A stretch of 64,000 nt of DNA from Candidatus Moraniibacteriota bacterium (GCA_027008775.1 JALVDV010000006.1:13551-77550); one strand, 5' to 3'. Positions 12,161 to 45,611 are shown, numbered from the stretch's first letter. Notes: a model not told the origin generated them from the letters alone. Numbers and translations: made by a program.

Positions 12161-12195
12161 TTATAATCTAGCGGAGAAGGAAGCTTCTTTTTAGC

Positions 12196-13287
12196 TTGGT
12201 TATGGAAAAAAATAAACTAAAAAACAAAAAAATATTGGTGTTCTCGGGCTTGCTGATGGTAAGTTTATTTTCTTTTGTTTTGGTGCGCGCCAAGGATAAT
12301 TCTTTTGATTATTTTCAGGACCGAGATCAAGATGGCCTAACCGACCAGGAAGAAAAAGCTTTGGGAACAGATTGGAAAAAAGCTGATACCGATGGTGATG
12401 GTTATAGTGATGGTGTGGAGGTTAAGAACGGTTTCAATCCGTTGGTACCGGCGCCGGGAGACAGGCTTACTCCAGAAGAGAACCAAAAGGTTAGAGAGGT
12501 TGTTTTTAAAAAACAACATCTACAAAAAAATTTAACACAGGAATTTATAGAGAAATTAAAGGCGAAGAAAGAAGGAACTCTGGAGGCTTTTAAGGAAGCC
12601 AGTGGAGAGTCAGGTGTGGTGGTTGATTTAGATTCTATGAAGAGAGTAAAAAGTTTATCATTGACCAATAAAGACATAGAAGAAATTGTTCGGGAAACGA
12701 TGCAGGATTCCAGTTTAGGCTCGGAAATGAAGTTGTTACCGGAAAGTGATTTTAAAATTTTGCCGAAAGTTACAGCTAAAAGTGAAAGAAAGAAAAAGGA
12801 AAAAATCAAAAAAGAATTGGAAGATTATGTCGCGCAGGTTGGTTATATAATGGTAAAAAATTTACCTTTTCAGTTGGATGAAGGAGATGAATTTGCTAAA
12901 AAGTTGGATAAATTTATGGTGGGTGTTGGGGATGATATTGTTATGGGTGATGATTTGAGGGTTAAAGAAAGTAGGGCAAGGTTAAGCAAGACTTTTCAAG
13001 AATTGAAAGAAATAGAAATTCCCTATGTTGTTAAGGATGTGCATATAAGAATTTTGTCTTTGATGAATTATTTGTTGGAGCAGGATGAGGATATTGTTTT
13101 TCAGAAGGATGATCCGGTGGCGATGGCTTTGTTAGTGGGGCGTTTGCAAGGTATTTTGTCTGATATCCAAGCGCAGCAAATTATTCTGGAGGATATTTTG
13201 GAAAAGTATGGAGTGGTTGACTCTCAATTTAAAAGTGTTAAAGAAATGGAAGATGTGGATTACAAGAATGATCAAAAGAATAAATAA
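12196..13287 (+). CDS. hypothetical membrane-anchored secreted protein with a thrombospondin type-3 (Ca-binding) repeat
   Basis: N-terminal TM helix, then DQDGLTDQEEKALGTDWKKADTDGDGYSDGVEVKNGFNP. It is the first gene of the T4SS-like cluster. Confidence 0.5.
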   Translation: MVMEKNKLKNKKILVFSGLLMVSLFSFVLVRAKDNSFDYFQDRDQDGLTDQEEKALGTDWKKADTDGDGYSDGVEVKNGFNPLVPAPGDRLTPEENQKVREVVFKKQHLQKNLTQEFIEKLKAKKEGTLEAFKEASGESGVVVDLDSMKRVKSLSLTNKDIEEIVRETMQDSSLGSEMKLLPESDFKILPKVTAKSERKKKEKIKKELEDYVAQVGYIMVKNLPFQLDEGDEFAKKLDKFMVGVGDDIVMGDDLRVKESRARLSKTFQELKEIEIPYVVKDVHIRILSLMNYLLEQDEDIVFQKDDPVAMALLVGRLQGILSDIQAQQIILEDILEKYGVVDSQFKSVKEMEDVDYKNDQKNK

Positions 13288-13297
13288 GATATGATGC

Positions 13298-14254
13298 GTG
13301 AAAAAAAAGAATTTACTTATTAAAAACCAGGTTTTGATGAAGGAAAATTTGTTGACAAGAAAAAAAGTATTTTTTGTTGGTTGGGCGCTGATTTTGTTTT
13401 TTGTTTTTTGCAATGGAGCCGAAGCTTCTTGGCCGACAGAAAATATCACCGGTTTGACCGGTGTAAATTTGAGTGCCGCTTTAAATTCGGCAGAGCAAAA
13501 AATCAGAAGTATTATTTTAGCCAGAATGCAACAGGAGGCTATTAAACAAATTCAGGATACAATGGCTGATTTGGTGGTGGGTGATGGTTATAATTCTTAC
13601 ATAATTTCCGATTACGAAGATTTTATTTATGGGACGGCGCAACGAGCGGCAAAACAAAAAATGGTTGATTTTTTTAAGCAACAAGGGGAAAGAGTGACGA
13701 TGGAGGAGAGGCAAGTTTTACATGAAGTGGAGGCTAAAGTTAGGGAAGATTTGTTTGGAGAGACGCCGAAACAAGATTTGGGTCAGTATGTGGAGGATGC
13801 TTATGGCCGAAAAACCAGCGCTCCTTATGGAGATATGTTTAAAGGAAATTCCTTGGCCGCTTGGGTTAGGTATGAGACCGGACCTTTTAATAAACCGTGG
13901 CAGATGGTTGATTACACCGAAAAGATGTTGCGGGATTATATGGAGCGGGTGGAAGATGTGCAAAGAACTAAGGCTATAGCCAACCAAGGATTTGATCCCA
14001 AAAATGGTGTACCCGGCAGTGTGATTGCGCAGCTGGTGGCTCAGTCAGAAGGGGCGCCCATTGAAATGATTTCCAATGCCACTACGGCGGAGCAGGTGGT
14101 CACCAGTTTGGCTACATCCACTTTAACTTCATTTATGCGAAACGGTTACAGTCGGGTGGCCAAGCCGGCTGCGAATCAGATTGATAAAATAAATGAAAAG
14201 TATGAAGGAGGCGTAAAGACGATTCAGGATTTGATTTATGAGGGGCAAAATTAA
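13298..14254 (+). CDS. hypothetical bitopic secreted protein (possible VirB8-like scaffold; weak)
   Basis: 318 aa with one N-terminal TM helix and a soluble domain. Placement between the TSP3 protein and the VirB6-like gene is the only basis for the VirB8-like suggestion. Confidence 0.4.
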   Translation: MKKKNLLIKNQVLMKENLLTRKKVFFVGWALILFFVFCNGAEASWPTENITGLTGVNLSAALNSAEQKIRSIILARMQQEAIKQIQDTMADLVVGDGYNSYIISDYEDFIYGTAQRAAKQKMVDFFKQQGERVTMEERQVLHEVEAKVREDLFGETPKQDLGQYVEDAYGRKTSAPYGDMFKGNSLAAWVRYETGPFNKPWQMVDYTEKMLRDYMERVEDVQRTKAIANQGFDPKNGVPGSVIAQLVAQSEGAPIEMISNATTAEQVVTSLATSTLTSFMRNGYSRVAKPAANQIDKINEKYEGGVKTIQDLIYEGQN

Positions 14255-14278
14255 TTTTTTTAGTGAGTTTTTGTCTGG

Positions 14279-16189
14279 ATGAAAAACAAAATTAAAATTT
14301 TTTTCAGTGATAGTTTACGGAACCCAAGATCGCGGGCGGTTTTGTTGGTGGCTTTGTTGTTGTTTTTTGGCCCTTGGCATTTTGCCAGAGCTGAAAGTGA
14401 AAGTGGTGCGATAATCAAGGTTTTTGCTCAACTTTTGGAGCTCGCTAATGATTTTTTGAGGTGGACTATTTCTCCAGGGCTTTACGAGAATGTTTTTTTC
14501 TCGGATGTAGCCAAAGAGGCGGTGCTGGGCGCCTGGAAAGTAGTGCAGGGTTTCGTGAATATGTTTTATCTATTAATTTTGATTTTTTTGGCATTGGCTA
14601 CTATTTTGCAAATCAACGGTTTTAATGATAAAAAATTATTTGTCAAGGTAATCCTGAGCGCTATTCTGGTTAATTTTTCTTTGCCAATCACCGTTTTTGT
14701 GATAGACCTTTCCAATATTTTTATGAATTATTTTGCTTCAGCCATTCATTCCACCAGTGTGGCCAACGTTTTTTTTGATAGCACTCAGTACGAACAACTT
14801 ACGAAAAATCTCGGTTTTTTTAGTTCAATCGGAATGGATATTTTTTCGGCCATAATTTATTCTATTGTGATAGTGATGCTCTTATGGACAGCGGCGGCTT
14901 TATTGATAAGGCTGGTGGCTTATTGGGTTTTGATAATTTTGTCACCCTTGGCGTTTTTTTCTTTGGCTTTGCCCGGGTCAAGCGGTTTTAAGGAGTGGAA
15001 AGATAAATTGGTTCACTATTCATTTTTCGGGCCGATAATGTTGTTTTTTATTTGGTTGTCTCTTTATTTGTTAAATTCCTTGAAAGCGGCTTTTTTAAAG
15101 CATCCCGAGCCAACTTCTTATAGCAAATTGGTCGTTTTTATTGTTGGTTATATTACCGGGATCTATTTGCTTTATTATGGTCATGATAAGTCACGGACGA
15201 TGGCCAGCAAGGCGGGTGATTTGGCGGGAAATTTTATGGGAAAAGCGTGGGCGCATGGAGCTAAAACGGGTAAGTTTATGGCCACTGCCGGTCCGCTTGG
15301 AATGATGGCCAAGTCTTATGGCAAGGCCGGGTACGAGGGTGGAAGGGCTTTTTTGAAAAAACACAAGGCAACCTCTTGGTTAACTAAGGAGGGGCGGGAG
15401 GAGAAACAGAAAGAGAGAGATGAAATGGCAAAGTCATTGGCGACCGGTAAAGGCAGTTTAAAAGAGCGATACCAGAGAACAAAAGATAGACAGGAAATGA
15501 AGAAGATCAGTGATAAAGAAAAAGAGATGTTAGAAGCCGGATATGATTTGGATAATATTGATGAGTTGAAGAGATTGAGAGACGGGGGTGGTTTGGAAGG
15601 AAAAGTGGCAGCTAAAAGATTAGCCGAAAAAGGTAAATTGGGTGGAGAAGGTGAGCTGGAAAAAGCGATTAATGTTGCCGGGGATAATGAGTTGTTAAGG
15701 AAGCATATTTTAACAAAGACCAGTGATAAAAATAAGGTCGCTTATATGAATTACAATTTAAAGCATTACAGTGACAATGAGGATAGTAAAAAGTTTGTCA
15801 ATGATATGTATAAAAAAGCGATAGAGGAATATAATAAAAACAATCCTGATGCGGAAGTGGTCTATGATCCTGATTCAGAAAGAGATATTGATAGATTTTT
15901 AGTGGCAATGAGCCAGGAAAAAGGTTTAAAGCCCAGTGAGGTGCGTAAACAAATGGCTTACAATGGAATGTTTGCCGGGGCCAAATCTGTTAATCAGATA
16001 GCCGATATTTTAAATGAAGATGCCGGTAAACAAGGGGAAGAGGCGGCGCGAGCTTTTGCTAACTATGCTCAAGATCCCAATTTTGGGGCGGAGAGATATA
16101 ATAGGGAAAATTGGAAAGCGAAGGAAATTCTCAACAATAATCTTAACAGTAAGGCCAGTGCTGAATTAAGAAATAGAGGGTTTTTTTAA
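14279..16189 (+). CDS. VirB6/TrbL-like polytopic membrane protein
   Basis: Signal peptide, at least six hydrophobic helices, then a ~270-aa K/E-rich hydrophilic C-terminal domain. This architecture and the position upstream of PrgI/VirB4 are typical of VirB6/TrbL. Confidence 0.45.
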   Translation: MKNKIKIFFSDSLRNPRSRAVLLVALLLFFGPWHFARAESESGAIIKVFAQLLELANDFLRWTISPGLYENVFFSDVAKEAVLGAWKVVQGFVNMFYLLILIFLALATILQINGFNDKKLFVKVILSAILVNFSLPITVFVIDLSNIFMNYFASAIHSTSVANVFFDSTQYEQLTKNLGFFSSIGMDIFSAIIYSIVIVMLLWTAAALLIRLVAYWVLIILSPLAFFSLALPGSSGFKEWKDKLVHYSFFGPIMLFFIWLSLYLLNSLKAAFLKHPEPTSYSKLVVFIVGYITGIYLLYYGHDKSRTMASKAGDLAGNFMGKAWAHGAKTGKFMATAGPLGMMAKSYGKAGYEGGRAFLKKHKATSWLTKEGREEKQKERDEMAKSLATGKGSLKERYQRTKDRQEMKKISDKEKEMLEAGYDLDNIDELKRLRDGGGLEGKVAAKRLAEKGKLGGEGELEKAINVAGDNELLRKHILTKTSDKNKVAYMNYNLKHYSDNEDSKKFVNDMYKKAIEEYNKNNPDAEVVYDPDSERDIDRFLVAMSQEKGLKPSEVRKQMAYNGMFAGAKSVNQIADILNEDAGKQGEEAARAFANYAQDPNFGAERYNRENWKAKEILNNNLNSKASAELRNRGFF

Positions 16190-16293
16190 AAAGATTTTTC
16201 CAAGAGCGTCTAGGTGATGATGGAAAAAATTTTAAAGTTACTTAATAGGTGGTTTGTGGTTATGAAGTGTTTTTTACTTAAAATAGCAATAAA

Positions 16294-17847
16294 ATGACAG
16301 AAGATAATAAACAGAAAAACAGTTTGGCGCAAAAGTCTGTTACGGGTTCTCCTGTTGGCAGTGGTGTCGGAGGAAATCAGAGTCAGTCTCAAGGGAGTGG
16401 CAATGATTTGGTTAGGGCAGGTGTGGGAGTAGCAGGTAGAGGAGGTGGTGGTGATGACAATTTGGAAAGCGCTGGGCGGGTAAATAATTTTTCTCAAAAA
16501 AGGAATATTGAGATCGGTGACAGAGTTGTTTCTCTAAAGAATGTGATGACTGACAGAGAATTGGCAAGAATGAAACAGTTAGAAGAGGAAAAACAAAAGG
16601 CTGTGAAGTTAAGAAAAATGAGCACTGAAGGGAAAAACATGAAAGACTCGTCAGTTGTTGGAGAAAGGTCGCATTTAGAGATTACCCCTGAGGGAAAAAT
16701 AATAAAAGAACCGTTAAAACCAAGAAGGTCAAATGACCAGTCTGGTTTTGTTGATAGTGAAGTGAGTGATAAAAATGTTCTTTCTTTAAAAAACTTGAAA
16801 AATAAAGTTGAAGGAAAAACGAGTGGTGAGCCGGAGAAAAAAATAAGTGGACAAAATGTGGTGAACTTAAAAAATCAAAAAAGTGAAACCGTTAGTGTTG
16901 GGTCAAGAGGAAAAACAGAGCATTCTCTCTCAGATAATTTTGAAAATAATAAGGGTCTTGTTTGGGAAAAACAAAGAGTTGATTTAAGCAATTTAACGCC
17001 GGAAAGGCGGTTGGAAATACAGGCTAAGCCCTATTCAGCCAGTGTGCATTGGAAAATGGATGATGATTTAAACGGGGATATTAAAAATTTATTTGAACAA
17101 TATGACAAGTTGCCCTTGGAAATCAGACTGGGATTGGAAAGTGAGCGAGTGAAGCAGGAGATTGAGAAAATAGCGCGTGATTTTAAATTGTTTAGGGAAG
17201 AATATCTGGGAGAAATTTCTCGGATGGTTAGAGATTATTTTTTGGTGGGTTGGAGGCGAGAGGAATTGTTTAAAAGAATCAGGAAGGTTTTTGGTTTAGA
17301 TGCGAATGGGGCGGAAAATTTAGTTGGTCATATTTTGCGAATAATCAAATTGGTGGAAGAGGAGGGAAAAAAGATGGCTCGTCAGTTTTATGTATCTTTA
17401 ACACTGGAAGAAGCTGAAGCCAAGTATCCAAATTTAGGAGAACAGAAAATTAGTAAAGAAGATATTTTTAATGAGAAAACAGGTGTTTTTATTGAGCCAA
17501 CGGTTGACAATTGGATTACGAATTACATCAATTACGCCGGTTCGGGTAGACACAGCGCTCTGGAGCGTAGCAGGTATTTGTCAAATTCGGCTAATGTGGC
17601 GAAATTGTCGCCGGAGGAAAAAGAGTGTTTAAAAAAAATTCTTAGATCTTTTGACGAAAAAACCAAGTTGGTGTTTACTAAAGATGATGGAATTTTGATG
17701 TGTGGATTGGATGATGTAAATGGTGTCTTGGCTGAAGAGGGGGCAGAAGGGCTGTCTGAGAAAAAAACAGGAAAAAGAGTTTTGAATAATTTTAGAATAG
17801 ACGAAGCGCAAACTGTTGATGTTGATAATGAAATTGGTGGTGTGTAG
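16294..17847 (+). CDS. hypothetical soluble protein with a Gly/Ser-rich N-terminus and internal V[VL][SN]LKN repeats
   Basis: 517-aa ORF inside the cluster with no TM segment. Repeated VVSLKNVM / VLSLKNLKNK / VVNLKNQK segments are visible. Confidence 0.4.
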   Translation: MTEDNKQKNSLAQKSVTGSPVGSGVGGNQSQSQGSGNDLVRAGVGVAGRGGGGDDNLESAGRVNNFSQKRNIEIGDRVVSLKNVMTDRELARMKQLEEEKQKAVKLRKMSTEGKNMKDSSVVGERSHLEITPEGKIIKEPLKPRRSNDQSGFVDSEVSDKNVLSLKNLKNKVEGKTSGEPEKKISGQNVVNLKNQKSETVSVGSRGKTEHSLSDNFENNKGLVWEKQRVDLSNLTPERRLEIQAKPYSASVHWKMDDDLNGDIKNLFEQYDKLPLEIRLGLESERVKQEIEKIARDFKLFREEYLGEISRMVRDYFLVGWRREELFKRIRKVFGLDANGAENLVGHILRIIKLVEEEGKKMARQFYVSLTLEEAEAKYPNLGEQKISKEDIFNEKTGVFIEPTVDNWITNYINYAGSGRHSALERSRYLSNSANVAKLSPEEKECLKKILRSFDEKTKLVFTKDDGILMCGLDDVNGVLAEEGAEGLSEKKTGKRVLNNFRIDEAQTVDVDNEIGGV

Positions 17848-17909
17848 AAATTGTTTGTTGATTGAGGTATGCTTACCATAAATTTAAAATAAAGAACAAA
17901 AAATAAAAA

Positions 17910-18341
17910 ATGTTGAGAAGATTTCAGGTACCACAATATGTTGATGTGGAAGATAAGGTTGCTTTTCGCCTGACATTTAAACAGTTGGGTTGGTTTGCTT
18001 TGGGCGGGGTCGTTTTGTTTTTGCTTTGGGTGGTTTTTGAAAAGTGGGTTTTTTGGACATTTTTTCCTTTTATTTTGGCTTTGGCGGCAGCATTTGCTTT
18101 TTGGCGACCGGCCGGCTTGTCGCTTTTTGCCTTTTTGACGTATGGATTAAGGCATTTTGTGAAGCCTAAATATTTGGTCTGGGATAAGGGTTTTGAAGGT
18201 GATGATGAAATGAATAGAGCAGTGAAAATACCAGAAGACTCCGAAAAACAAAGTCAGTTGGTTCAGGAAAAACGGAAAAGAGCGCAACTAAGTAGGTCAG
18301 CCGATTTGGCGGAGCTTTTAGATGAAAAGGGTAAGTTGTAA
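17910..18341 (+). CDS. PrgI/VirB3-like small membrane protein
   Basis: 143 aa. A short N-terminal segment is followed by two adjacent TM helices (GWFALGGVVLFLLWVVF...FFPFILALAAAFAFW). It lies immediately upstream of VirB4, the canonical PrgI-PrgJ arrangement. Confidence 0.5.
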   Translation: MLRRFQVPQYVDVEDKVAFRLTFKQLGWFALGGVVLFLLWVVFEKWVFWTFFPFILALAAAFAFWRPAGLSLFAFLTYGLRHFVKPKYLVWDKGFEGDDEMNRAVKIPEDSEKQSQLVQEKRKRAQLSRSADLAELLDEKGKL

Positions 18342-18357
18342 TTTTTAAACCAAATAG

Positions 18358-19062
18358 ATGTTTGGAAAATCAAGCAATACTACACCAAAAGGTAACAATA
18401 GGCATCAGGCGATACAGGAGTATGTTGATATTGCTGAAATTAAGGAATCAACGGTAATTTTAAGAGATGGTTCGTTAAGAGCCGTTTTGGCGGTTTCGTC
18501 GGTAAATTTTGATTTGAAGTCAGCGGAAGAACAAGAAGCGATTATTTTTGCTTTTCAACGATTTCTTAACTCGGTTGATTTTCCGATTCAAATCGTGGTC
18601 AGCTCTCGGAAATATAATATTGATACATATCTAAAAAAATTAAAGGAAAGAAGTTATGTGGAACGTAACCCTCTTTTAAAAATGCAAATTCTTGATTATA
18701 TAGAATTTGTTTCCGGGTTGGTTGAAGAGGCCAGCATAACAAGTAAATATTTCTATGTAGTGGTTCCTTTCTATGCAATACAGAATAAAAAGGCCGGTTT
18801 GTGGCAAAAAATCGGTTTTATTTTAAATCCCAGAAAATCTATTTTTGAACAGAGGGAACTTTTTGAGACAAGTAAGGACCAATTGTTACAGCGGGTTGAG
18901 GAAGTAAAACATTTGTTGGCCGGTGTAGGTTTGAATGTGGCGATGCTATCAACTCAGGAGTTGATAGAATTGTATTATAATTATTACAATCCTTCGGAGT
19001 TTAGTTATGTTTCTTTAACACCAATGGAAGAATTGCAATTAGAAGAAAATAAAAATTTATAA
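18358..19062 (+). CDS. VirB4/TrbE-family N-terminal domain fragment (probably the 5' part of the following VirB4 gene)
   Basis: 234 aa with no Walker motifs. It ends 8 nt before the VirB4 ATPase ORF and is +1 out of frame relative to it. Removing one A from the A5 run at 19051-19055 fuses the two ORFs. Confidence 0.45.
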   Translation: MFGKSSNTTPKGNNRHQAIQEYVDIAEIKESTVILRDGSLRAVLAVSSVNFDLKSAEEQEAIIFAFQRFLNSVDFPIQIVVSSRKYNIDTYLKKLKERSYVERNPLLKMQILDYIEFVSGLVEEASITSKYFYVVVPFYAIQNKKAGLWQKIGFILNPRKSIFEQRELFETSKDQLLQRVEEVKHLLAGVGLNVAMLSTQELIELYYNYYNPSEFSYVSLTPMEELQLEENKNL

Positions 19063-19069
19063 ACCCAAA

Positions 19070-20965
19070 ATGTTTAATATATTTGACAGAGTTAATTTTA
19101 GAAAAGTAAAGAAAGATAATTTAAGTGAGTTGGAGTTAGGGCGAGAAAATGAAAAGCGGGGAAGAAGTTTTTTTCCAAAACATTCGTCGGGATCCGATGA
19201 TATTTTAGAGGAGGAAAAAATTTATCGGCAAGGATTGGCCAAAGTGCTTGATTTAATTGCTCCGTCGGCAATGGGGATTTCCAGTTCTTTTTTGCAAATT
19301 GGCAGTGTTTATGCTCGCACGATTTTTATTATGGCCTATCGGGAAACCCTGGCAATTGGTTGGATGAATGAAATAATAGCCATGGATATTCCAATGGACA
19401 TCGGAATATTTATTAATCCGGTGGATACCAGCTATATTTTGAAAAAATTACGCAAAAAAACCGTGCAAGTGCAATCGGAAATGCATATTGAAGCGGAGAA
19501 AGGGTTGCCCAGGGATCCGGTTCTGGAAATGGCTTATGCCAATATTGAAAATTTACGAGACAGATTACAAGATGGAAGTGAAAGGTTTTTTGATTTGGGT
19601 ATTTATTTTACGGTTTTTGGAAAAACGGAAGAAGAAATGGAAAAAAGAACGGACATTCTGGAAACACTGCTGAGCGCTCGGTCAATTTATACCAAGAAAG
19701 CTATTTTCAGAATGAAGGAAGGTTTTACATCCACCATTCCTTTAGGCCTGGATAAATTGCAGGCTCTAACGCCGATGAACACTTCTCCGCTTTCAACGGT
19801 TTTCCCTTTTGTTTCGGCGGACATTACCTCCAATGAGGGGATTTTGTATGGTATCAACCAACACAACAATTCTTTGATTTTGTTTGATCGTTTTACAATG
19901 GAAAATGCCAATATGGTGGTTTTTGCCAAGTCGGGGGCCGGTAAAAGTTTTACGGTTAAATTAGAAATTTTGAGATCAATGATGTTGGGAACGAATGTTG
20001 TGGTGGTTGATCCGGAGAATGAGTATGAATATTTGGCGGAAGTGACCGGAGGAGCGTTTATCAATATTTCTTTGAATTCCAAGCAACATATTAATCCTTT
20101 TGATTTGGCAATAGAAGATGGAAAAACCACTAAAGAATTATTGCGATCTAATATCGCCAACTTGTTGGGTCTTCTAAAAATCATGCTGGGAGCTTTGACA
20201 CCGGAAGAAGAAGCTGTTTTGGAAGAGGCTATCAGGGAAACTTATGAGGTGATGGATATAAATGAAAACACTTCATTGTCGGAGCTGGAAAAGAGAACTA
20301 TGCCGGTGATGTCTGATCTTTATCAGGTTTTAAGAAATATGCAAGGGGCGGAGGATATGACAATTCGTTTAAAGAAATACACGGAAGGCGTTTTTGAGGG
20401 CTTTGTAAATAAAAGAACAAATATTTCTTTGGATAATCAATTGGTGGTTTTTAATATTAGGAATTTGGAAGAAGAATTGAGACCGGTGGCTATGTATATG
20501 GTGTTGCATTTCATTTGGAATAGAGTTAGGAGTGAAATAAAAAAGAGATTGATTGTAGCTGATGAGGCCTGGGTAATGATGCAACATGAGGAAGCGGCGA
20601 ATTTTATGTACTCCATGGCCAAGAGAATTAGAAAATATTATGGTGGTCTGACGACAATTACTCAAGACATAAACGATTTTATGAGTACAAAAAAGGGTCA
20701 GGCGATTGTTTCCAATTCATCTATTCAGCTCTTAATGAAACAAGCTCCTTCAAGTATAGATATTGTTTCAGACACTTTTTATTTGACCGAGAATGAAAAA
20801 CATTTTTTGTTGGAGTGTAACGTGGGAGAGGGAATTTTCTTTGCCGGTAATAAAAGAGCGGCTATTTTGGTAGTGGCCTCCCATAATGAGGAAAAAATAG
20901 TAACCACCAAGCCGGAGGAAGTTTTGGAAAGAGAAAGAGAAAGGAATGAATTGCGAGGAGAGTAA
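19070..20965 (+). CDS. VirB4/TraE/PrgJ-family type IV secretion ATPase (ATPase domain)
   Basis: Walker A is VVFAKSGAGKSFT. Walker B is RLIVADEAWVMM. Length and motif spacing are typical of the VirB4 family. Confidence 0.8.
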   Translation: MFNIFDRVNFRKVKKDNLSELELGRENEKRGRSFFPKHSSGSDDILEEEKIYRQGLAKVLDLIAPSAMGISSSFLQIGSVYARTIFIMAYRETLAIGWMNEIIAMDIPMDIGIFINPVDTSYILKKLRKKTVQVQSEMHIEAEKGLPRDPVLEMAYANIENLRDRLQDGSERFFDLGIYFTVFGKTEEEMEKRTDILETLLSARSIYTKKAIFRMKEGFTSTIPLGLDKLQALTPMNTSPLSTVFPFVSADITSNEGILYGINQHNNSLILFDRFTMENANMVVFAKSGAGKSFTVKLEILRSMMLGTNVVVVDPENEYEYLAEVTGGAFINISLNSKQHINPFDLAIEDGKTTKELLRSNIANLLGLLKIMLGALTPEEEAVLEEAIRETYEVMDINENTSLSELEKRTMPVMSDLYQVLRNMQGAEDMTIRLKKYTEGVFEGFVNKRTNISLDNQLVVFNIRNLEEELRPVAMYMVLHFIWNRVRSEIKKRLIVADEAWVMMQHEEAANFMYSMAKRIRKYYGGLTTITQDINDFMSTKKGQAIVSNSSIQLLMKQAPSSIDIVSDTFYLTENEKHFLLECNVGEGIFFAGNKRAAILVVASHNEEKIVTTKPEEVLERERERNELRGE

Positions 20966-20991
20966 AAAGTGTTAAAAATTTACTTATTTTT

Positions 20992-21678
20992 ATGAGAGAG
21001 AGTGATTTGGAGGTGGAAAGACAAAATAAATTGAATAGAGAAAGAATAACGGAATTATCTAAAAAAGCAAAAGAAAAAAGATTGAAGGAGGCGCGAGAAT
21101 TTTCTCGGGTGAATCGGGTGGTAAGTTTGAAAAAAACGGAACATTTTTCTCGGGGACCAGTGAATTTATTTGTTGTTAATCTTTTGAAATATGTTGATTT
21201 ACAGAAAGACGGAGTTTATTTTGTAATTTTTTTTCTGAGCATTCTGGCTGATCTAATAACTCTGGCGGAAGCAATAGTGAGCGCTAGCTTAGCGGCCATT
21301 CCTTTTGGCGGTTGGGTTTTGGACGCTCTTTTTTCAGCCCCGTTTGAACTTTTGGTAATAGCTTTTTCAGTGGTGATTGCCATTCTTTATCTTCTAGCCG
21401 GACATTACAAAACCAGGAAGAAAGCGTTGAGGATTTTTTCTGTTTTAGGGTTTGATTTATTGGAAATGGTGCCGTTGCTTTCTGTTTTGCCGGGTTTTAC
21501 AATTTCTTTCATAATTAATTATTTGTCGGTTCTGGCGGTTAGAGCAAAAGAGAATGCTGAGGGACGGTATAATTTAGATAGGGAAATTTTGCGTAAGAGG
21601 TTGGAGGTTCAGGAAAAAAGGAAAAGATTGTTGCGACAACAAAGTTATCAAAATTGGCAGATGGAAACTAAAAGATAA
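20992..21678 (+). CDS. hypothetical membrane protein (coiled-coil N- and C-termini, 4 TM)
   Basis: 228-aa ORF with a K/E/R-rich N-terminus, four hydrophobic helices and a basic C-terminus. Confidence 0.4.
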   Translation: MRESDLEVERQNKLNRERITELSKKAKEKRLKEAREFSRVNRVVSLKKTEHFSRGPVNLFVVNLLKYVDLQKDGVYFVIFFLSILADLITLAEAIVSASLAAIPFGGWVLDALFSAPFELLVIAFSVVIAILYLLAGHYKTRKKALRIFSVLGFDLLEMVPLLSVLPGFTISFIINYLSVLAVRAKENAEGRYNLDREILRKRLEVQEKRKRLLRQQSYQNWQMETKR

Positions 21679-21688
21679 TATTTGGTTT

Positions 21689-22396
21689 ATGAAATTATCA
21701 CTTTTGCGGCGGATGCCGAACATGCGGAAAAAATTGGTGGTAGCCTTGGTTTATTACATTGTTCTTGTGTTGGTGGTAAGTTTTTTTTACGATGGTTTGT
21801 TGAAAATAAACTTGGCGGAGAAGACTTTTTTAATTGTTTTATTTCTTTTTTTAGTGCCCGTTTGGTTAATTAAGAAGATTTTTGTTGATGATTTAATTGA
21901 TTATAATTTTCCCGGTTTTAAAGTTTGGAGAAGGTTTTTTTTACTGGTGGTAATACTGGCAGTTGCCAGTTTATTGGTTTTGCTTTTTATGGTACAATGG
22001 CGGTGGAAACTGGAGGATGGAGGTTATGTCTGGAAAATTGGGGACCTGTTTGCTTTTTGGGTGGAAACGATTTTTATTTTGCCGATTAGTCTCTTGGCGC
22101 AAGAGTTTTTTTTCCGAGGATTTTTACTGAGAAGTTTTGCAAGGAATTTTAATTGTTCTTTTTCGGTTCTCTCGGTTGGTTTATTAACGGTTTTCTTTCT
22201 TGCTTTAGCAAAGATTGTGTCATTACAAGCAGGAATTTTATTAGGTGTTTTTTTGCTTAATTTATTTTTATCGGCGTTGGTTTGTTGGAAGAAGTCAATA
22301 ATTTGGTCACTGGCTGCTTATTGGACTGGGCTCCTGCTGTTAAGATTTATTTTGCTTTATCAAGTTGGGGAGCGGATTATTGAAAGACTAAAATAA
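21689..22396 (+). CDS. CPBP (CAAX protease/Abi) family intramembrane metalloprotease
   Basis: Polytopic protein carrying the LLAQEFFFRGFLLRS motif (EExxxR). The later His motifs are degenerate. Confidence 0.55.
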   Translation: MKLSLLRRMPNMRKKLVVALVYYIVLVLVVSFFYDGLLKINLAEKTFLIVLFLFLVPVWLIKKIFVDDLIDYNFPGFKVWRRFFLLVVILAVASLLVLLFMVQWRWKLEDGGYVWKIGDLFAFWVETIFILPISLLAQEFFFRGFLLRSFARNFNCSFSVLSVGLLTVFFLALAKIVSLQAGILLGVFLLNLFLSALVCWKKSIIWSLAAYWTGLLLLRFILLYQVGERIIERLK

Positions 22397-22416
22397 AAAT
22401 AAAAAAGATTGATTTT

Positions 22417-25400
22417 TTGGAAATGAAAAAGAAAAGGAAATATTTGAATAATCTTGTTTTAAAACCGATAACATTTTTACTGGTTGGTTTTTTGCTGGCA
22501 AATCTTTTTCTTGATGTAGTTTTGGCGCAGACTCTGGTAAGAGAGGTCGGTGATAATTTGGCTGAAAACTGGACTACAGCTGAAGAAAGAATTCCGCAAA
22601 ACAATTCTTCGGTAGTTAGCGGGACGAACAGTATTGTGCAACTTTTAGGAGAAATAATGGCGCCTGTCTATCAGTTGGCTACTCCCGGTTCCAATTTAAC
22701 TTATGATATTTATCGCTATTTAATGAAACACACGGAAACAGAACTGGGAATTGATAAAGATTTTTTTCGCAGATTAAAAAGAAAGGTTGATGCGCCGACG
22801 GTGGATATCGTTTTTGCGCCAACCAATCCCAAAGAAGGACAACCGGTGACGGCTTTTGCGGTGCCAAGTGGTTTCAGAAACAGCAAAGATAGATTGTATT
22901 TTACCTGGTACTTGGTTCATAAGGGACAAAACGATGTTCAGGCCGGTCGGGATGAAGCAATGGGGATGGTGGCGCGAGGCGGATATGACAGAGATTTGTT
23001 TGGGAAGCCAAATGGTGATGATGGCAACAGGGATGCTTACAACGCTTCTTTTGGTGGCAATGATGGCGTGGGCGCTAAAAGCGGAAAAGCTATCGATCAA
23101 CATTGTGAGGGATGTGATTGTTTGCATAATATGACGATGTTTGCCGGTGAAGTGGAGAGAGGTTGTTTTGATGATAAAGGGCAATTGTTGTATTCCAATT
23201 TAGAGGAGTATAGGGAAGCTGTTAAGGATGTTGGTCAGGAAAAGGCTGATTGGGGGAAGGGGGCCGTTAACTCTGATTGGATAACGCGTTGTTACCGACA
23301 TAATTTTGGCAGAAAAAGCGGAGATGGAGAGGAGTATTCCGGTCGGGATTTAATAATTAAATGTCAACATGCCTTTGATTCTTCTTTGGGTGGCAGTGAT
23401 AATAGTTTTGGTCGGGCGGATGAAGATAAGTGGGTGACCAATCCGGCTAATCCGGATACCGATGGAGACGGAGTGGTGGATGAAGCGGATTTGGTTGGTC
23501 TGGGCCAGGATGAATTCACTTGGATTTACCACAAAGGTGACAGGGTGACGGTGGCGGTGGAGGGGACTTCCAATATTATGATTAATGAGGGTGCTACAAA
23601 TAGGCTGAGGTATAAAAATAAGCATCATACCAGCGGTGATTTTGATTTATCACCGACGGCTTCACCGGAGGAATGGTATAAAGAAGCCAGAAATTATTGT
23701 GAAACACGAAAGAATGATTGTTTGGCCAGCACTGGTGATTCAATGAATTATGTTCCGGTTAGTAGCAGGTTGCCGGACGATAGTGAGTGTGTCAGACAGT
23801 ATGCTGATTGTATGAAGGACGTTTGGCAACATCAATGGTCCGGTAATGATGAAGATTCTTTTGGTGATTTGACCGGTTATTATAAAATTATGTGGGCGGC
23901 GCCGGGGATTTGCAGTCAAGAAAATAAGGATGAAGCGGAAAATGATTGGTGCGACAGTCGTGATGACTTTGGTTTTCAATATTTGAAACTCTATGATCCG
24001 GTGGAGAGAGGAAAACAGTTGATGAAAGTTTCAGTCAATATTTCGCCAAAAAACCCGCAATTTTTTGAACCGACGGAAGATGATTGTAATATGTTGGGAG
24101 GGGTTTGTTATATGTTCGGCGATGGTACGGATATGATTTTGGCCAGCGCGGATATAGTTGGCGATGACAATGTTGATCCTGATTATTTATACTATAAATG
24201 GAGTGTTTGGCGTTGTGATAAAAACGATTTTACCAATTGTGAAGATGTAACCAGTTTTGTTTATCCGGTTAGTCAAAAAGAGGGAATAGGAGTAAGGGAT
24301 TTTGGCTTTTATCCGATGAATCCGGTAAGGAGTCTTTTTAAAGAGGGGGAAAATGAAGCTTTATTGAAGGTGGGGGTGGTGGTAAAAAAACATAAAAATG
24401 CAACGATGAGTTCTCCGGGGGTGAGTGGAGTTTATGAACAACAAATTGGAAGCAATCAGACGGGTGTTTCAGCCGATCAGTATGTGGAAAAATACGCTTA
24501 CACGGCCAGTCAGTTAATAAAAGTTCATAAAAATGATTTAGCTATCAAACTGTACACTGCGGTTCCGGATGGTAGTGGCGGTTGGAAGAAGGGTCGGGAA
24601 ATTTGTAACAGAACCGGCTCTCTTTACAAGAAGGTTTGTCCGGTTTTCCCTTACCAAGTTTTAATGGCGGAGTTGGACACGAGAAATGCAAATGTTGACG
24701 GTGGTATTGTTTGGAAAATTAATGGCAAGAAGATTAAACCTAATTATTTGGGTGATATAAACACGGAAAATAATTCGCCCAGAGTTTTCTTTCCGGTAAC
24801 GGGAGCGGAAAATGAACTGGGTTTAATTACAGCCATAGCGAAACGAGGTAATGATTCTGAAAATGACAATCTTTCGGTGACAGAACGTATTTTTAGTATT
24901 CGTAATCCATTGGCGGTTATTACCGACAAAGGACAATTAACCAGGCGTTCTTTGACAAAAGCTTTTGTCGGTTCCGAGAAAGCCAGAACTTTTCAGGGGT
25001 ATCAGCTTTGGTGGATTCTGGGATATCCGTCTAAAGAGTGGGCCACCACTCAAGATAGTTCTGCGGACGGTTTTCAAACGACAGTAGATATCCCAATAAG
25101 AGTGATTCCTGATTACTTAAGAACAAAGGAAGATGGTACAACCTTAAAAACCAGTGTTTATCTGAATGGATACTATGTGGGGATGGTTTCCAATGATATG
25201 GATAACGAAAATGCTAACGGAGAGGGTGGTGCGAGTGGTAATGGTGCTGAAGGGAACAACACAGACACCACCAATGGCGAGAGTAGTTCCGGTAACCGGG
25301 AAAATGGAACCGCCTGGTTACTGAAAAATGTTATGTTTACCCGCGTGAGGGAAGGTGATGTAAATACTCTAAAGTTAAAGACTTTATTAAGCTTTGATGA

Positions 25401-25716
25401 GAATTATAAAAAATCAATGATAAAAAGTTTTAATATAAAACCGGTAAATGAACTTTACAATGAACAGACAATTGAAGTTAAGCCGATTACAGCGGAACAC
25501 TATAAGAACATTACTGGCAAGGAAGTTAGTGACAGGATTACTTTCGGAGAGAGAATGAGGTTGTTACTGGCTTCAGTTATAAATAAAATCCCCGATTATT
25601 TGTTATCTGTCTTTAAGTTGGCGACAGTTTTAGTTTTGGTGACGATGATCACTTTTGCGGTGGCCTACGGTTTGGATGTAAATCAGAATCAGCACGGTTT
25701 CAGGAACAAGTTTTAG
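22417..25716 (+). CDS. large secreted Cys-rich surface protein (1099 aa) with a TSP3 repeat and a C-terminal TM anchor
   Basis: Signal peptide, more than 30 Cys residues, NPANPDTDGDGVVDEADL (a TSP3 Ca-binding loop), a Gly/Asn/Glu-rich linker and a C-terminal hydrophobic helix (LATVLVLVTMITFAVAYGL). Confidence 0.5.
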   Translation: MEMKKKRKYLNNLVLKPITFLLVGFLLANLFLDVVLAQTLVREVGDNLAENWTTAEERIPQNNSSVVSGTNSIVQLLGEIMAPVYQLATPGSNLTYDIYRYLMKHTETELGIDKDFFRRLKRKVDAPTVDIVFAPTNPKEGQPVTAFAVPSGFRNSKDRLYFTWYLVHKGQNDVQAGRDEAMGMVARGGYDRDLFGKPNGDDGNRDAYNASFGGNDGVGAKSGKAIDQHCEGCDCLHNMTMFAGEVERGCFDDKGQLLYSNLEEYREAVKDVGQEKADWGKGAVNSDWITRCYRHNFGRKSGDGEEYSGRDLIIKCQHAFDSSLGGSDNSFGRADEDKWVTNPANPDTDGDGVVDEADLVGLGQDEFTWIYHKGDRVTVAVEGTSNIMINEGATNRLRYKNKHHTSGDFDLSPTASPEEWYKEARNYCETRKNDCLASTGDSMNYVPVSSRLPDDSECVRQYADCMKDVWQHQWSGNDEDSFGDLTGYYKIMWAAPGICSQENKDEAENDWCDSRDDFGFQYLKLYDPVERGKQLMKVSVNISPKNPQFFEPTEDDCNMLGGVCYMFGDGTDMILASADIVGDDNVDPDYLYYKWSVWRCDKNDFTNCEDVTSFVYPVSQKEGIGVRDFGFYPMNPVRSLFKEGENEALLKVGVVVKKHKNATMSSPGVSGVYEQQIGSNQTGVSADQYVEKYAYTASQLIKVHKNDLAIKLYTAVPDGSGGWKKGREICNRTGSLYKKVCPVFPYQVLMAELDTRNANVDGGIVWKINGKKIKPNYLGDINTENNSPRVFFPVTGAENELGLITAIAKRGNDSENDNLSVTERIFSIRNPLAVITDKGQLTRRSLTKAFVGSEKARTFQGYQLWWILGYPSKEWATTQDSSADGFQTTVDIPIRVIPDYLRTKEDGTTLKTSVYLNGYYVGMVSNDMDNENANGEGGASGNGAEGNNTDTTNGESSSGNRENGTAWLLKNVMFTRVREGDVNTLKLKTLLSFDENYKKSMIKSFNIKPVNELYNEQTIEVKPITAEHYKNITGKEVSDRITFGERMRLLLASVINKIPDYLLSVFKLATVLVLVTMITFAVAYGLDVNQNQHGFRNKF

Positions 25717-25889
25717 TTTGCCGCTTTTGTTAGTTGAGTATAAATAGTAGTGACTATTTTGGTGTCGCTTTAAAACTGGTTGGTGATTTTTGTTTTAATA
25801 AGTTCTGGTTAATTCTGAGAAAATATTTGAAATTTAGCTGGTTTTTAAGATGTCCAATATTTTAAAATTGTTTTTAAAATTATTATTCT

Positions 25890-26867
25890 ATGAAAATTTC
25901 CAGACTTAGAAAAATTGTTTATCTGCTAATCTTAGTTTTGGTTTTCAGTTCACCTTTTTTTGTTTTGGCTCAGAGTGGTGGAGGAGTGTCAGGTTCAACG
26001 CAGTCTTCAGGAAATAATTCCGGAGGCGTAACCGGTGGGAATTCTTCCTCTCAACCCAATCAAAGTCAAGCTGGAAATCAGGGGGCGCAAAATTCGTCTC
26101 AGTCCGGTCAAAATCAAAATCAAAATGGCGGTCAAGGCCCAAGTCGTGAAGATACTCGTTTTAAATACAGATTGCACGAGAAAATTCCGGGGCAGGAAAA
26201 CGTTGACGACTTGCAGTCTTATTTGGAAGCTTTATATAGATTTGGTATAGCCATAGTGGCCATCCTGGCGGTAGTGATGATTGGAATCGGAGCTTTTATG
26301 TACATAGTAACGGCGGCGGGAAATTTGTCTAAAATGGCCAATGCTAAAGAAATAATCGGTAACGCTATCTTTGGTTTGGTTATGGCCCTGTTGGCTTGGC
26401 TGATTTTATATATTATAAATCCGGATTTGGTGGGAACAACTTTAAATACGCCCAGAAAAAGCATTAACCTGGAAGCTTATGTGGGCGACGAGCAACCGGA
26501 TCCGGAAGTTTGTCGTAATCCATATAGAAAGCTTTACCAGATGGGTTTGTGTAGTGGAGATAAAGCTTGTGTGAAAGATCAGTGTGAGTATTTGGTTGCT
26601 ATTTGTTTACATAATAATGCTGAGTCCGGCAGTAATATTTCAGAGGAAGATCAGGAAATAGCAAAAAGTGACCTCTGTCAATCTTTTTTTGCCAAACCGG
26701 GTGGCGGTTTTTGTGGTTCAATAGCAAATGATGGTTCAATGTTGGGCAGATGTACCGAGACCGGAGTAGTCAATTGTCCTTCAGGAAAGGCCAGGGTCAC
26801 CGATGGTGTACAATGTGCCGGTGATTCGGTCTGTTGTACACCAAAGGAGATCCTGGAATTCTACTAA
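25890..26867 (+). CDS. VirB2/TrbC-like pilin candidate with a low-complexity N-linker and a Cys-rich C-terminal domain
   Basis: Signal peptide and a Gly/Ser/Asn/Gln-rich linker come first. Two hydrophobic helices follow, separated by a short polar loop (FGIAIVAILAVVMIGIGAFMYIV-TAAGNLSKMANAKEII-GNAIFGLVMALLAWLILYII), which is the T4SS pilin topology. A C-terminal domain with 12 Cys closes the protein. Confidence 0.4.
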   Translation: MKISRLRKIVYLLILVLVFSSPFFVLAQSGGGVSGSTQSSGNNSGGVTGGNSSSQPNQSQAGNQGAQNSSQSGQNQNQNGGQGPSREDTRFKYRLHEKIPGQENVDDLQSYLEALYRFGIAIVAILAVVMIGIGAFMYIVTAAGNLSKMANAKEIIGNAIFGLVMALLAWLILYIINPDLVGTTLNTPRKSINLEAYVGDEQPDPEVCRNPYRKLYQMGLCSGDKACVKDQCEYLVAICLHNNAESGSNISEEDQEIAKSDLCQSFFAKPGGGFCGSIANDGSMLGRCTETGVVNCPSGKARVTDGVQCAGDSVCCTPKEILEFY

Positions 26868-26872
26868 TGTAA

Positions 26873-28051
26873 TTGTTGGGAAAAATGAATTTTGGTAAAC
26901 AAAAAGTTTTTATTGTTGTTTTTGGAACAGCCTTGGCGCTTGGTCTTGTTGTTTTAGGATATATTTTTTGGCAGAAAGGGGGTTTTAAGTTGGTGGAGAA
27001 AAGGTTGAGTAAGAAAGTGGAGATAAAAAGTGATTTTAAAGAGGTCAAGTCAAAACCCGCTAAAAAGGAATTAAGCAGGTTTCTGAAGTTGGCCGAAACT
27101 CCTGTTTTGGGTTTGAGATTATTTCCCGGGACCAATAAGGTTTTGTTCTATCAGGCGCAGAAATTTTTTACGGTTGATCCTTATTCGGGAGAGAGAAAAT
27201 CAGTGGGAGCCTATCCTTTTACCGAGGTGCAAAAGTTTGTTTGGGATTTATCCGGAAATAAAGCGATAGTGAAAGATTTGGGTGAGTATTATATTTTTGA
27301 CTTTCGATCAAATTTGACTAAGAAATTTCCTGATAAAATTGACATAGCCATTTGGAACAGACAGGGTGATAAGGTGATTTATAAAAACTACAATACTCAA
27401 ACTCATCAAAGGCAAATAAAAGTTGCTGATACTGATGGCAATAATAAAATGGTAGCAGTTGATAACTTGCCTTACCGTAGAATAGAGATGACTTTACAAC
27501 CGAGGACTGATCGCTTTTGTTATTTTCCTTCTCCGGATGCCAGAGTGAAGGGCAGATTGTTTTGTCAAAATTTGGATGGCAGTAATTTGCAGGAGTGGGG
27601 TGGCAATTACGGACAGGATTATTTGTGGTCGCCCGCTGGGGAGAAAATTTTGACCTCTTTTGCCAAGGATGAAACCGGAAGTCAGTTGGTCTTGGGGGTA
27701 ATGAATAAAAATGGAGGAGAATTTCATGGCTTGGCTTTTCCCACCACGGTAAGGAAATGTGTCTGGTCTAAAGACGGTGTTAATGTATATTGCGCTTTAT
27801 TAGGTAATATTCCTACGGTGGTAATGTTGCCAAACTTTTGGCAAGAAAAATCTTTTGACTCCGTGGATACATTTTGGAAAATAAATACCGAAACCGGTAA
27901 AAAAAGCAGATTGGTGGAAGTGGAAAAAATGAAACAAGGAGATAAAGAGCTGTTGTTTGATACAACCAATTTGCTATTGGATCCGGAAGAGGAATTTTTG
28001 TTTTTTATTGATCGTCGGCAAGGAGATTTGTGGAGGATAAAAATAAAATAA
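26873..28051 (+). CDS. hypothetical membrane-anchored protein, beta-propeller/TolB-like repeats (weak)
   Basis: N-terminal TM helix. Repeated hydrophobic-Asp/Gly stretches resemble PD40/WD-like blades. This is the last gene of the cluster. Confidence 0.4.
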   Translation: MLGKMNFGKQKVFIVVFGTALALGLVVLGYIFWQKGGFKLVEKRLSKKVEIKSDFKEVKSKPAKKELSRFLKLAETPVLGLRLFPGTNKVLFYQAQKFFTVDPYSGERKSVGAYPFTEVQKFVWDLSGNKAIVKDLGEYYIFDFRSNLTKKFPDKIDIAIWNRQGDKVIYKNYNTQTHQRQIKVADTDGNNKMVAVDNLPYRRIEMTLQPRTDRFCYFPSPDARVKGRLFCQNLDGSNLQEWGGNYGQDYLWSPAGEKILTSFAKDETGSQLVLGVMNKNGGEFHGLAFPTTVRKCVWSKDGVNVYCALLGNIPTVVMLPNFWQEKSFDSVDTFWKINTETGKKSRLVEVEKMKQGDKELLFDTTNLLLDPEEEFLFFIDRRQGDLWRIKIK

Positions 28052-29264: not shown

Positions 29265-29265
29265 A

Positions 29266-30567: not shown

Positions 30568-30568
30568 T

Positions 30569-41384: not shown

Positions 41385-41397
41385 TTTAAAAATTGGA

Positions 41398-45026: not shown

Positions 45027-45051
45027 AGATTAAAGTTAGACGGACAGAGAG

Positions 45052-45080
45052 AGGCGGTTTTATTGAAGCCGCCTTTTTTA
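45052..45080 (+). terminator. rho-independent terminator after the Phe-rich small ORF
   Basis: aggcgg...ccgcct stem with an 11-nt loop, followed by tttttt. Confidence 0.4.
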
Positions 45081-45550: not shown

Positions 45551-45565
45551 ACATAGGCAAGTTTG

Positions 45566-45591: not shown

Positions 45592-45611
45592 TAAAGGTGG
45601 TCAAGAGTTGG

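Follow-up and report, generated by a model that had tools for sequence, protein, structure and literature searches.

Patescibacteria account for a large share of bacterial diversity and seemingly live off host cells. Their type IV secretion systems (T4SSs) carry VirB4 ATPases that form a monophyletic clade related to the MPF-FATA class of mating-pair formation (MPF) systems, and genes for TrsD, VirB3/PrgI, VirB6 and VirB2-like pilins are found near virB4 (Quinonero-Coronel et al., 2025, PMC12102498). Almost no relaxases accompany these systems, genes for type IV coupling proteins (T4CPs) are rarely linked to virB4, and the T4SS loci of Paceibacteria lie close to dnaA/dnaN (PMC12102498). In Southlakia epibionticum, one of the related Saccharibacteria, the homologous cluster SEML1_0006-0019 was found by transposon sequencing (Tn-seq) to be essential in co-culture, for epibiotic growth; it encodes no recognisable coupling or relaxase proteins, and pilins are among its essential products (Wang et al., 2023, Cell, PMC10633639). 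A 2025 review restates these findings and speculates that the apparatus acts as an exchange conduit between bacterium and host (PMC12857230). Among T4SSs, that of Patescibacteria is the first for which an essential role in the survival of its own bacterium has been reported. Here, we describe twelve genes at positions 12,196 to 28,051 of a 64,000-nucleotide stretch of DNA from a Candidatus Moraniibacteriota bacterium (GCA_027008775.1 JALVDV010000006.1:13551-77550), this whole stretch being called the window in what follows. The cluster very probably encodes a chromosomal, origin-proximal T4SS of the Patescibacteria type, in a Moranbacteria-like genome (class Paceibacteria).

This attribution follows from the list of parts, the Patescibacteria relatives, the conserved synteny and the lack of a linked T4CP or relaxase. 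The locus belongs to the clade already described and is not a new system. It offers a clean, complete and syntenically well-supported Moranbacteria/Paceibacteria example, with nothing new in kind. Profile comparisons relied on Pfam, NCBIfam and family profiles against PDB sequences, with hydropathy for transmembrane (TM) segments. Pfam scans covered all window open reading frames (ORFs) of at least 200 amino acids (aa) and most shorter ones, and a Walker A scan was added. The sequence searched was the 64-kb window plus adjoining stretches recovered at both ends.

The operon and its T4SS parts

The ORF calls give twelve co-directional plus-strand genes spanning 12196-28051, in agreement with a preliminary description of this DNA. 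They are named g01 to g12:

12196..13287, +, g01: secreted protein; two bacterial TSP3 (Ca-binding) repeats at the N-terminus, plus a domain of ~270 aa without family
13298..14254, +, g02: exported or N-terminally anchored all-alpha protein, no family
14279..16189, +, g03: VirB6/TrbL-like polytopic membrane protein, "extended VirB6"
16294..17847, +, g04: 517-aa cytoplasmic protein, of low complexity in its N-terminal part, conserved domain of ~250 aa (residues ~230-480)
17910..18341, +, g05: PrgI/VirB3-like two-TM protein, 143 aa
18358..19062, +, g06: TrsD/TraC-like soluble protein resembling the VirB4 N-terminal domain
19070..20965, +, g07: VirB4-family ATPase of MPF-FATA-related type, the T4SS signature motor, 631 aa
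20992..21678, +, g08: small membrane protein of about four TM segments with charged N- and C-terminal tails, unannotated family
21689..22396, +, g09: six- to seven-TM protein, distantly CPBP/Rce1-like
22417..25716, +, g10: surface protein of 1099 aa with 18 Cys, a signal-like segment at the N-terminus and a TM anchor at the C-terminus
25890..26867, +, g11: VirB2-like T4SS pilin
26873..28051, +, g12: N-terminally membrane-anchored TolB/PD40-type beta-propeller

The motor, g07, matches Pfam P-loop_TraG (2.1e-30), AAA_10 and DUF87. With the NCBIfam family conju_CD1110, from Gram-positive bacteria, it reaches 359.5 bits for a cut-off of 325. Lower scores are obtained with the VirB4 of Mycoplasma integrative conjugative elements (ICEs; 312), F-type TraC (197), VirB4_CagE (136) and CedB (45 bits). 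When a profile of g07 and its relatives was compared with the PDB, the VirB4 C-terminal domain 4ag5 (3.1e-58) and R388 TrwK (2e-4) were retrieved. The Walker A motif, AKSGAGKS, is at residue 286 and the Walker B motif is DEAW. Upstream, g05 matches Pfam PrgI (5.1e-10, 40.2 bits versus a cut-off of 27), possesses two adjacent TM segments and is taken to be the membrane anchor for VirB4. The product of g06, located between these two genes, matches NCBIfam TrsD (2.3e-8) and has a precomputed assignment to family PF26593 (TraC-like); its family profile has no significant match among PDB sequences. It aligns to positions 98-217 of the 894-position Mycoplasma ICE VirB4 model (3.2e-9), of which g07 covers positions 278-890. 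Thus, the N-domain and the motor of VirB4 are separately encoded ("split" VirB4), an arrangement also reported in Patescibacteria (PMC12102498).

In g03, about five TM helices within residues 20-310 are followed by a helical, hydrophilic C-terminal domain of ~270 aa. Its family profile has no significant match among PDB sequences. At the structural level, its best matches are R388 TrwI, the top Foldseek match in the PDB, and DotA; the protein has the features that define VirB6/TrbL, namely at least five TM helices with a VirB6 fold. The operon hence encodes a complete cytoplasmic-membrane module, made of a split VirB4, a PrgI/VirB3 anchor and an extended VirB6.

The pilin candidate, g11, matches Pfam T4SS_pilin PF18895 (4e-8, 33.7 bits versus a cut-off of 26.6). 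From its N-terminus, it is composed of a signal peptide, a G/S/Q/N-rich stretch, the pilin domain (residues ~93-187, two TM helices) and a C-terminal domain of ~140 aa with 12 Cys. No other pilin-like ORF is present in the window. In most orthologues, the C-terminus is extended by 110-330 aa with 6-24 Cys. Cys-bearing extensions were seen for instance in loci L003, L021, L026, L036, L037, L068, L076 and L077 of the set described below; canonical VirB2 is short.

The preliminary description had announced a VirB4 with Walker A/B motifs, a PrgI/VirB3-like protein, a VirB6/TrbL-like polytopic protein and a VirB2-like two-helix pilin, and all four are recovered here. The profile searches that it had proposed place VirB4 and PrgI over the Pfam/NCBIfam thresholds. 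Its assignment of the core to the MPF-FATA type agrees with the best VirB4 scores, obtained with the Gram-positive CD1110 and Mycoplasma ICE families, and the TrsD-like gene (18358-19062) is an overlooked member of that core.

The g12 gene lies directly 3′ of the pilin gene, an arrangement shared by many related loci. Its family profile matches the TolB structures 4r40, 4pwz and 7mx5 (1e-13), and Pfam PD40 is found in 11 of 30 orthologues. The protein has a single N-terminal TM segment and a linker, the TolB matches being confined to the propeller. It shares with TolB the PD40-type beta-propeller, but has a TM anchor where TolB has its N-terminal, TolA-binding alpha/beta domain. Whereas TolB goes with Tol-Pal partners and an outer membrane, these are not seen with g12, a conserved neighbour of a T4SS pilin gene; Pfam scans found no tol or pal genes in the 64-kb window. 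Therefore, g12 resembles TolB by one domain and is not itself a TolB. A pilin gene followed by a propeller gene is again seen in loci that bear the names of other Patescibacteria lineages.

As to the layout, the intergenic gaps measure 10, 24, 104, 62, 16, 7, 26, 10, 20, 173 and 5 nt. The near-zero spacing first attributed to the whole cluster holds for most junctions but not for three of 62-173 nt. The last ORF has 47 nt in common with a convergent gene, and a single terminator-like hairpin of good quality is found at 28144-28163, ~90 nt past the last gene. Otherwise, the promoter and terminator scan returned consensus-level matches only, near the shuffled expectation. The 20 nt 5′ of the twelve start codons (12176-26872) are mostly A/T-rich without a Shine-Dalgarno-like GGAGG; GAAGGAAG precedes the first gene only. 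Among the twelve longest ORFs, three start with TTG and one with GTG, so that some true starts may be further downstream. Public gene calls have 305 aa for g02, 223 aa for g08, 224 aa for g09 and 1090 aa for g10.

Described systems, relatives and chromosomal setting

The S. epibionticum T4SS is likewise chromosomal. Both clusters have VirB6, PrgI, TrsD-like and VirB4 genes in the same order, VirB2-like pilin genes (one or more) and a protein of ~1100 aa encoded downstream of VirB4. More generally, the present locus shares with the Patescibacteria clade the lack of a linked relaxase or T4CP and, with the Paceibacteria, the vicinity of dnaA/dnaN. Differences are also observed. S. epibionticum has an array of six short pilins, two VirB6 genes and a lysozyme or peptidase gene after VirB4, whereas the present cluster has one pilin gene with a Cys-rich C-terminal extension, one VirB6 gene and no such hydrolase gene. 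PrgI is 143 aa long here and 300 aa long in S. epibionticum, and a separate cytoplasmic protein, g04, precedes PrgI here. The TolB-like propeller, the TSP3 protein and the CPBP-like protein are additional in our cluster. An NTF2/VirB8-like protein is not recognised, unlike in the S. epibionticum system.

Gram-positive MPF-FATA systems, such as pCF10 Prg/Pcf and the CTn2 CD1110 type, have in common with the cluster a CD1110-family VirB4, PrgI, a VirB6-type subunit and a monoderm envelope without the VirB7/9/10 outer-membrane core. However, pCF10 encodes the T4CP PcfC, the relaxase PcfG, the PrgK hydrolase, the VirB8-like PrgL and PrgD, and LPXTG adhesins, none of which is found here. In addition, pCF10 has no VirB2 pilin, while one is present here, and its VirB4 is full-length (796 aa), in contrast with the TrsD-like protein plus 631 aa of our cluster. 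Conjugative MPF-FATA systems are defined by a VirD4/TcpA-family T4CP and a relaxase with oriT, and no such T4CP or relaxase was found in the window or the recovered adjoining sequence. They are also defined by a VirB1-like hydrolase (PrgK/TrsG/CD419) and a VirB8-like protein (PrgL), neither of which was detected in the twelve-gene operon. When the family profiles were compared by hhalign with individual pCF10 Prg/Pcf proteins, nothing significant emerged; the best pairs, at no more than 3% probability, are pilin-PrgF, g06-PrgJ N-terminus and g03-PrgH, in the expected direction. With the MPF-T systems (R388 Trw, Agrobacterium VirB), the cluster shares the VirB6 fold, the VirB4 motor, the VirB3 anchor and a VirB2-type pilin. 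In contrast to them, it lacks VirB5, VirB7-VirB11 and VirD4, belongs to a monoderm, and has a VirB6 with a long helical C-terminal domain and a pilin with a large C-terminal domain.

Related loci were collected by scanning one genome per species, which yielded 80 VirB4-anchored loci. Family presence was scored by iterative profiles, and the denominators below are loci with enough flank. All families are co-directional with virB4 and in fixed positions:

TrsD family: 69/69 loci, directly upstream of virB4
PrgI family: 65/69 loci
g04 family: 54/69 loci
VirB6 family: 50/56 loci
g08 family: 39/74 loci, directly after virB4
propeller (g12) family: 32/55 loci
pilin (g11) family: 29/55 loci
1099-aa protein (g10) family: 24/55 loci, always between virB4 and the pilin gene
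CPBP-like (g09) family: 20/55 loci
TSP3 protein (g01): 15/56 loci, always at the head of the cluster
g02: 14/56 loci

The best 120 database matches of g07 (57-100% identity) are from Patescibacteria/Moranbacteria wherever they are named, and the best of the 80 loci by VirB4 is from Moraniibacteriota (68% identity); the affiliation of this VirB4 to Patescibacteria is drawn from such best matches and from scores. In Moranbacteria-type loci, including the complete genome CP064994, the order g01-g12 is kept and is followed by the same convergent genes as here:

28005..31378, −, Wzy_C, Wzy_C and a family 2 glycosyltransferase (GT2): Pfam Wzy_C 2e-18 and 2.3e-19, GT2 1.8e-16; convergent on the cluster

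The same minus-strand Wzy_C/GT2 genes come after the propeller gene in twelve loci (L002, L003, L011, L014, L015, L021, L025, L026, L032, L038, L056 and L062). Such conservation of order, chromosomal neighbours included, argues for vertical inheritance rather than for a mobile element.

Records of metagenome-assembled genomes (MAGs) with a Patescibacteria-type VirB4 are often titled "uncultured Bdellovibrionales", "Gammaproteobacteria", "Micavibrio" or "Candidatus Saccharibacteria" (loci L006, L010, L014, L015, L017, L019, L020, L024, L025, L031 and L033-L080), and some of these loci are collinear with the full Moranbacteria-type operon. The titles look like automated-taxonomy mislabels, unsuitable for inferring host range.

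Regarding the chromosomal setting, dnaA and dnaN are found immediately upstream of the window, on a short contig of the same sample that overlaps the window start (L083:2-2745). The cluster therefore begins ~15 kb from dnaA, which matches the origin proximity of Paceibacteria loci (PMC12102498). Since these two genes are just upstream, the strand presented is the origin-proximal leading strand. Its GC skew is strongly positive (+0.29 across 1-64000; 0.3-0.4 in most 2-kb bins; window G+C ~38%). Genes on the plus strand have a skew of +0.34 and those on the minus strand one of +0.10; the two Wzy_C genes, also on the minus strand, nevertheless keep values from +0.30 to +0.37. Upstream of the cluster, the window encodes the CCA-adding enzyme, three tRNAs, MscS, Fpg, MurB, HPF and PNPase. 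Downstream come the two Wzy_C proteins, GT2, DUF389, MetRS, TatD, SecA, a sortase, GalT, LepA and UDG, then an SLT+LysM protein, glycosyltransferases and S6, with SSB and EF-P also at the downstream end. Past the window end, the source contig (ENA ERZ27262687 k141_282564, 79,645 bp) carries housekeeping genes.

Pfam and Walker A scans found no T4CP, relaxase, VirB11 or integrase in the 64-kb window, and neither T4CP, relaxase, integrase nor repeat boundary is present when the adjoining sequence recovered at each end is included. The only VirB4/VirD4-class (HerA/FtsK-like) ATPase in the window is g07, the other Walker A matches being LepA and SecA. In the profile searches, none of the twelve cluster proteins showed a hydrolase or an NTF2-like domain. 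The preliminary description had stated that VirD4, relaxase, VirB1 and VirB11 are missing; this is correct for the cluster, but a VirB1-type enzyme does occur 27 kb away. This 553-aa protein (55082-56743), a lytic transglycosylase (SLT) with LysM, is the window's only enzyme of that type and might serve the T4SS in trans, by acting on the wall. An ICE or plasmid context was rejected in view of the housekeeping flanks and the conserved chromosomal synteny. The cluster is chromosomal and not on a conjugative element, as had been argued at the outset.

Possible role of the apparatus

Because no T4CP or relaxase is linked to it, the cluster most likely serves host interaction, by export to or uptake from a host. 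We favour, with moderate confidence, such an interaction with transport of material over conjugation; conjugative DNA transfer by the cluster is unlikely. The earlier idea of an apparatus of the kind seen in episymbiotic bacteria with reduced genomes fits with the Patescibacteria MAG relatives and with the published systems (PMC10633639, PMC12102498).

Considering the properties of the parts, the following mechanism may be envisaged. VirB4 hexamers, together with the TrsD-like N-domain protein, would dock on PrgI/VirB3 and VirB6 in the membrane. Docked VirB4 would power the insertion, extraction and assembly of the pilin, and a short conduit or pilus crossing the monoderm wall would result. 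Its extracellular end, in contact with the host, would be built or decorated by the Cys-rich extension of the pilin together with the 1099-aa protein, the TSP3 protein and the propeller. The g04 family might stand in for a substrate receptor, and the cargo, protein or other material, would be exported to the host cell or taken up from it. A bolder version may be imagined, in which the conserved unannotated parts (g04, g08, Cys-rich pilin plus propeller) define a T4SS working without coupling protein, g04 being a cargo/energy adaptor that replaces VirD4 and the pilin-propeller pair a new wall-spanning host-contact conduit for exchange. This version is speculative and we hold it for rather improbable.

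Several points weigh against a T4SS that transports material to or from a host. The putative role is deduced from genes. Neither a VirB8-like nor a VirB1-like component is recognised inside the cluster. No role can be assigned to six of the twelve proteins, namely g02, g04, g08, g10 and, for most of their length, g01 and g09. The pilin bears a 140-aa C-terminal domain, and pilus formation by such a pilin is only putative. Finally, a T4CP may be encoded elsewhere in the genome, the search having covered the window and its adjoining ends.

Among the alternatives, the first is an apparatus for adhesion and pilus assembly only, where a decorated VirB2-type filament and adhesins would hold the cell on its host with no translocation. 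VirB4, VirB3, VirB6 and VirB2, parts known to be sufficient for pilin extraction and polymerisation, are all present. The operon has no substrate receptor ATPase, it encodes many large surface proteins and a pilin with a Cys-rich external domain, and the pilin array is essential in S. epibionticum (PMC10633639, PMC12857230). However, adhesion of Saccharibacteria is ascribed to type IV pili and separate adhesins (PMC10633639, PMC12857230). Moreover, the g04 family, kept in 54 of 69 loci, suggests a cytoplasmic partner, possibly for cargo recognition, which would be superfluous in an adhesion device. Although the present data are consistent alike with assembly only and with transport, we consider an adhesion-only apparatus unlikely.

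A conjugative apparatus, or a decayed integrated conjugative element, moving DNA by means of a T4CP and relaxase encoded elsewhere, is very unlikely. It is true that VirB4 scores highest with conjugation families (CD1110, 359 bits; Mycoplasma ICE VirB4, 312 bits), that the searches reached only 64 kb and the adjoining ends of the genome, and that VirD4 homologues occur in 2,918 Patescibacteria genomes, mostly distant from virB4, along with a few relaxases (PMC12102498). Against this stand the lack of relaxase, T4CP, integrase and repeat boundary in the sequence searched, the core housekeeping flanks beside dnaA-dnaN, and a gene order that is conserved, chromosomal Wzy_C pair included, over many MAGs. 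Furthermore, the distant t4cp of S. epibionticum is non-essential, whereas its T4SS genes are essential (PMC12102498).

Absence of a coupling protein and a relaxase is compatible with translocation in described systems. Helicobacter ComB and archaeal Ced work without a linked coupling protein and relaxase, and T4SSs of this sort can import DNA. Bordetella Ptl and Brucella VirB also work without linked partners of either type (PMC12102498). Hence, T4SSs without a linked T4CP or relaxase can be functional translocators. Nevertheless, Ptl, Brucella VirB and ComB are MPF-T systems of diderms and have an outer-membrane core, Ced is archaeal, and their sequence likeness to the cluster is limited to VirB4 (CedB, 45 bits). 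A competence machine resembling ComB or Ced, which would import host DNA for nucleotides or genes, is the least probable reading: Patescibacteria are without nucleotide synthesis, VirB4 has weak matches to CedB (4.5e-12) and CedD, and T4SS loci of the class ABY1 adjoin comF, recG and radA (PMC12102498), but the 45 bits of CedB are far under the conjugative VirB4 scores, Pfam scans found no com, rec or DNA-binding genes in or beside the cluster, and Saccharibacteria competence relies on type IV pili and ComEC, with comEC deletion abolishing transformation without affecting viability while the T4SS is still essential, so that the essential role is not DNA uptake via ComEC (PMC12857230).

Accessory proteins and neighbouring genes

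Returning to the accessory proteins of the proposed host-interaction T4SS, g04 and g08 belong to families that accompany the core in many loci. No TM segment is predicted in g04 by hydropathy. Neither the protein, nor its family profiles (two alignments versus the PDB), nor ten long relatives gave a Pfam or PDB match. The family has 800 cluster representatives at E≤1e-3 among 1.84 billion proteins (phmmer), and according to the iterative hidden Markov model (HMM) search its genes are always between those of VirB6 and PrgI and co-directional with VirB4. For g08, the iterative HMM retrieved 46 matches, nearly all of which begin 0-100 nt after the virB4 stop; no Pfam match was found with the orthologue set and no PDB match with the family profile. 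The g04 and g08 families, the propeller and the Cys-extended pilins are conserved, unannotated partners on which structural and genetic studies of a monoderm T4SS devoid of relaxase and T4CP could sensibly focus.

The other accessory proteins are less widespread. At the head of the cluster, g01 has an N-terminal hydrophobic segment and TSP3 motifs at residues 42 and 64 (Pfam TSP3_bac 2.1e-12), and is specific to the Moranbacteria-type lineage. With one N-terminal hydrophobic segment and 26 close homologues, none of them with a Pfam domain, g02 is lineage-specific too. Its AlphaFold2 model is all-helical, with a predicted local distance difference test (pLDDT) score of 48.9, too poor for a fold search. 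It occupies the place where one could expect a VirB8- or VirB5-like subunit.

In g10, a TSP3-like Ca-binding loop, DTDGDGVVDEAD, is located at residue 347 within a conserved block. The loop had been pointed out before and is there as a motif only: g10 and 23 orthologues have no significant Pfam match, the family profile has none in the PDB, and the significant TSP3_bac match of the cluster is in 12196-13287 instead. This protein is a candidate adhesin or envelope-spanning part. Hydropathy makes g01 (12196), g02 (13298), g10 (22417) and g12 (26873) secreted or anchored, in line with the four large proteins so described initially. No LPXTG-type C-terminal signal was found in any of the twelve cluster proteins, and sortase anchoring of the surface proteins was rejected on that ground.

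The lineage-specific g09 had been called a CPBP intramembrane protease. Its Pfam Rce1-like score of 22.4 bits is exactly the cut-off (E 1.5e-4), which leaves it with a threshold-level likeness to that family. CPBP/Rce1-like proteases possess three catalytic motifs, EExxxR, FxxxH and HxxxN/D. In the g09 family (24 orthologues), E139-x-F-F-R143-G is conserved in 21-24 of 25 sequences, but no His column is conserved among the 25, and g09 and several orthologues contain no His at all. Since both His-containing catalytic motifs are absent from the family, an active CPBP protease was rejected as a candidate; judging from these motifs, g09 is probably not an active protease.

The preliminary description had proposed VirB8/VirB10-like folds for four products. 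Three turned out otherwise: 26873-28051 is a TolB/PD40 beta-propeller, 16294-17847 a cytoplasmic protein without TM segment, and 20992-21678 a four-TM protein. For 13298-14254, the all-helical model is too poor to classify. Its statement that most accessory parts have no family applies to g02, g04, g08 and g10, but not to the propeller or the TrsD-like protein.

Among the neighbouring genes, the two Wzy_C products are membrane proteins resembling O-antigen ligases/O-oligosaccharyltransferases. Wzy_C enzymes glycosylate pilins in other bacteria. By analogy, the present ones might modify the G/S/Q/N-rich pilin or other surface proteins.

Elsewhere in the window, the 4155-5384 gene (minus strand), between those of the CCA-adding enzyme and the tRNAs, encodes a protein of 409 aa, exported or anchored, which has 8 Cys and belongs to no Pfam family. 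From 45000 to 51100, G+C goes down to 0.34-0.35, the GC skew is lost and the AT skew is negative; this region contains seven short ORFs, mostly on the minus strand, with only a NUDIX hydrolase and a weak nucleoside 2-deoxyribosyltransferase match recognised. Finally, in the region 40119-42678, a 421-aa two-TM protein without family precedes a sortase fusion (41398-42678) that also contains three TSP3 repeats and a Ca-binding domain of binary-toxin/PA type. Thus, taken with those of the cluster, TSP3 repeats recur on several exported proteins of this genome.

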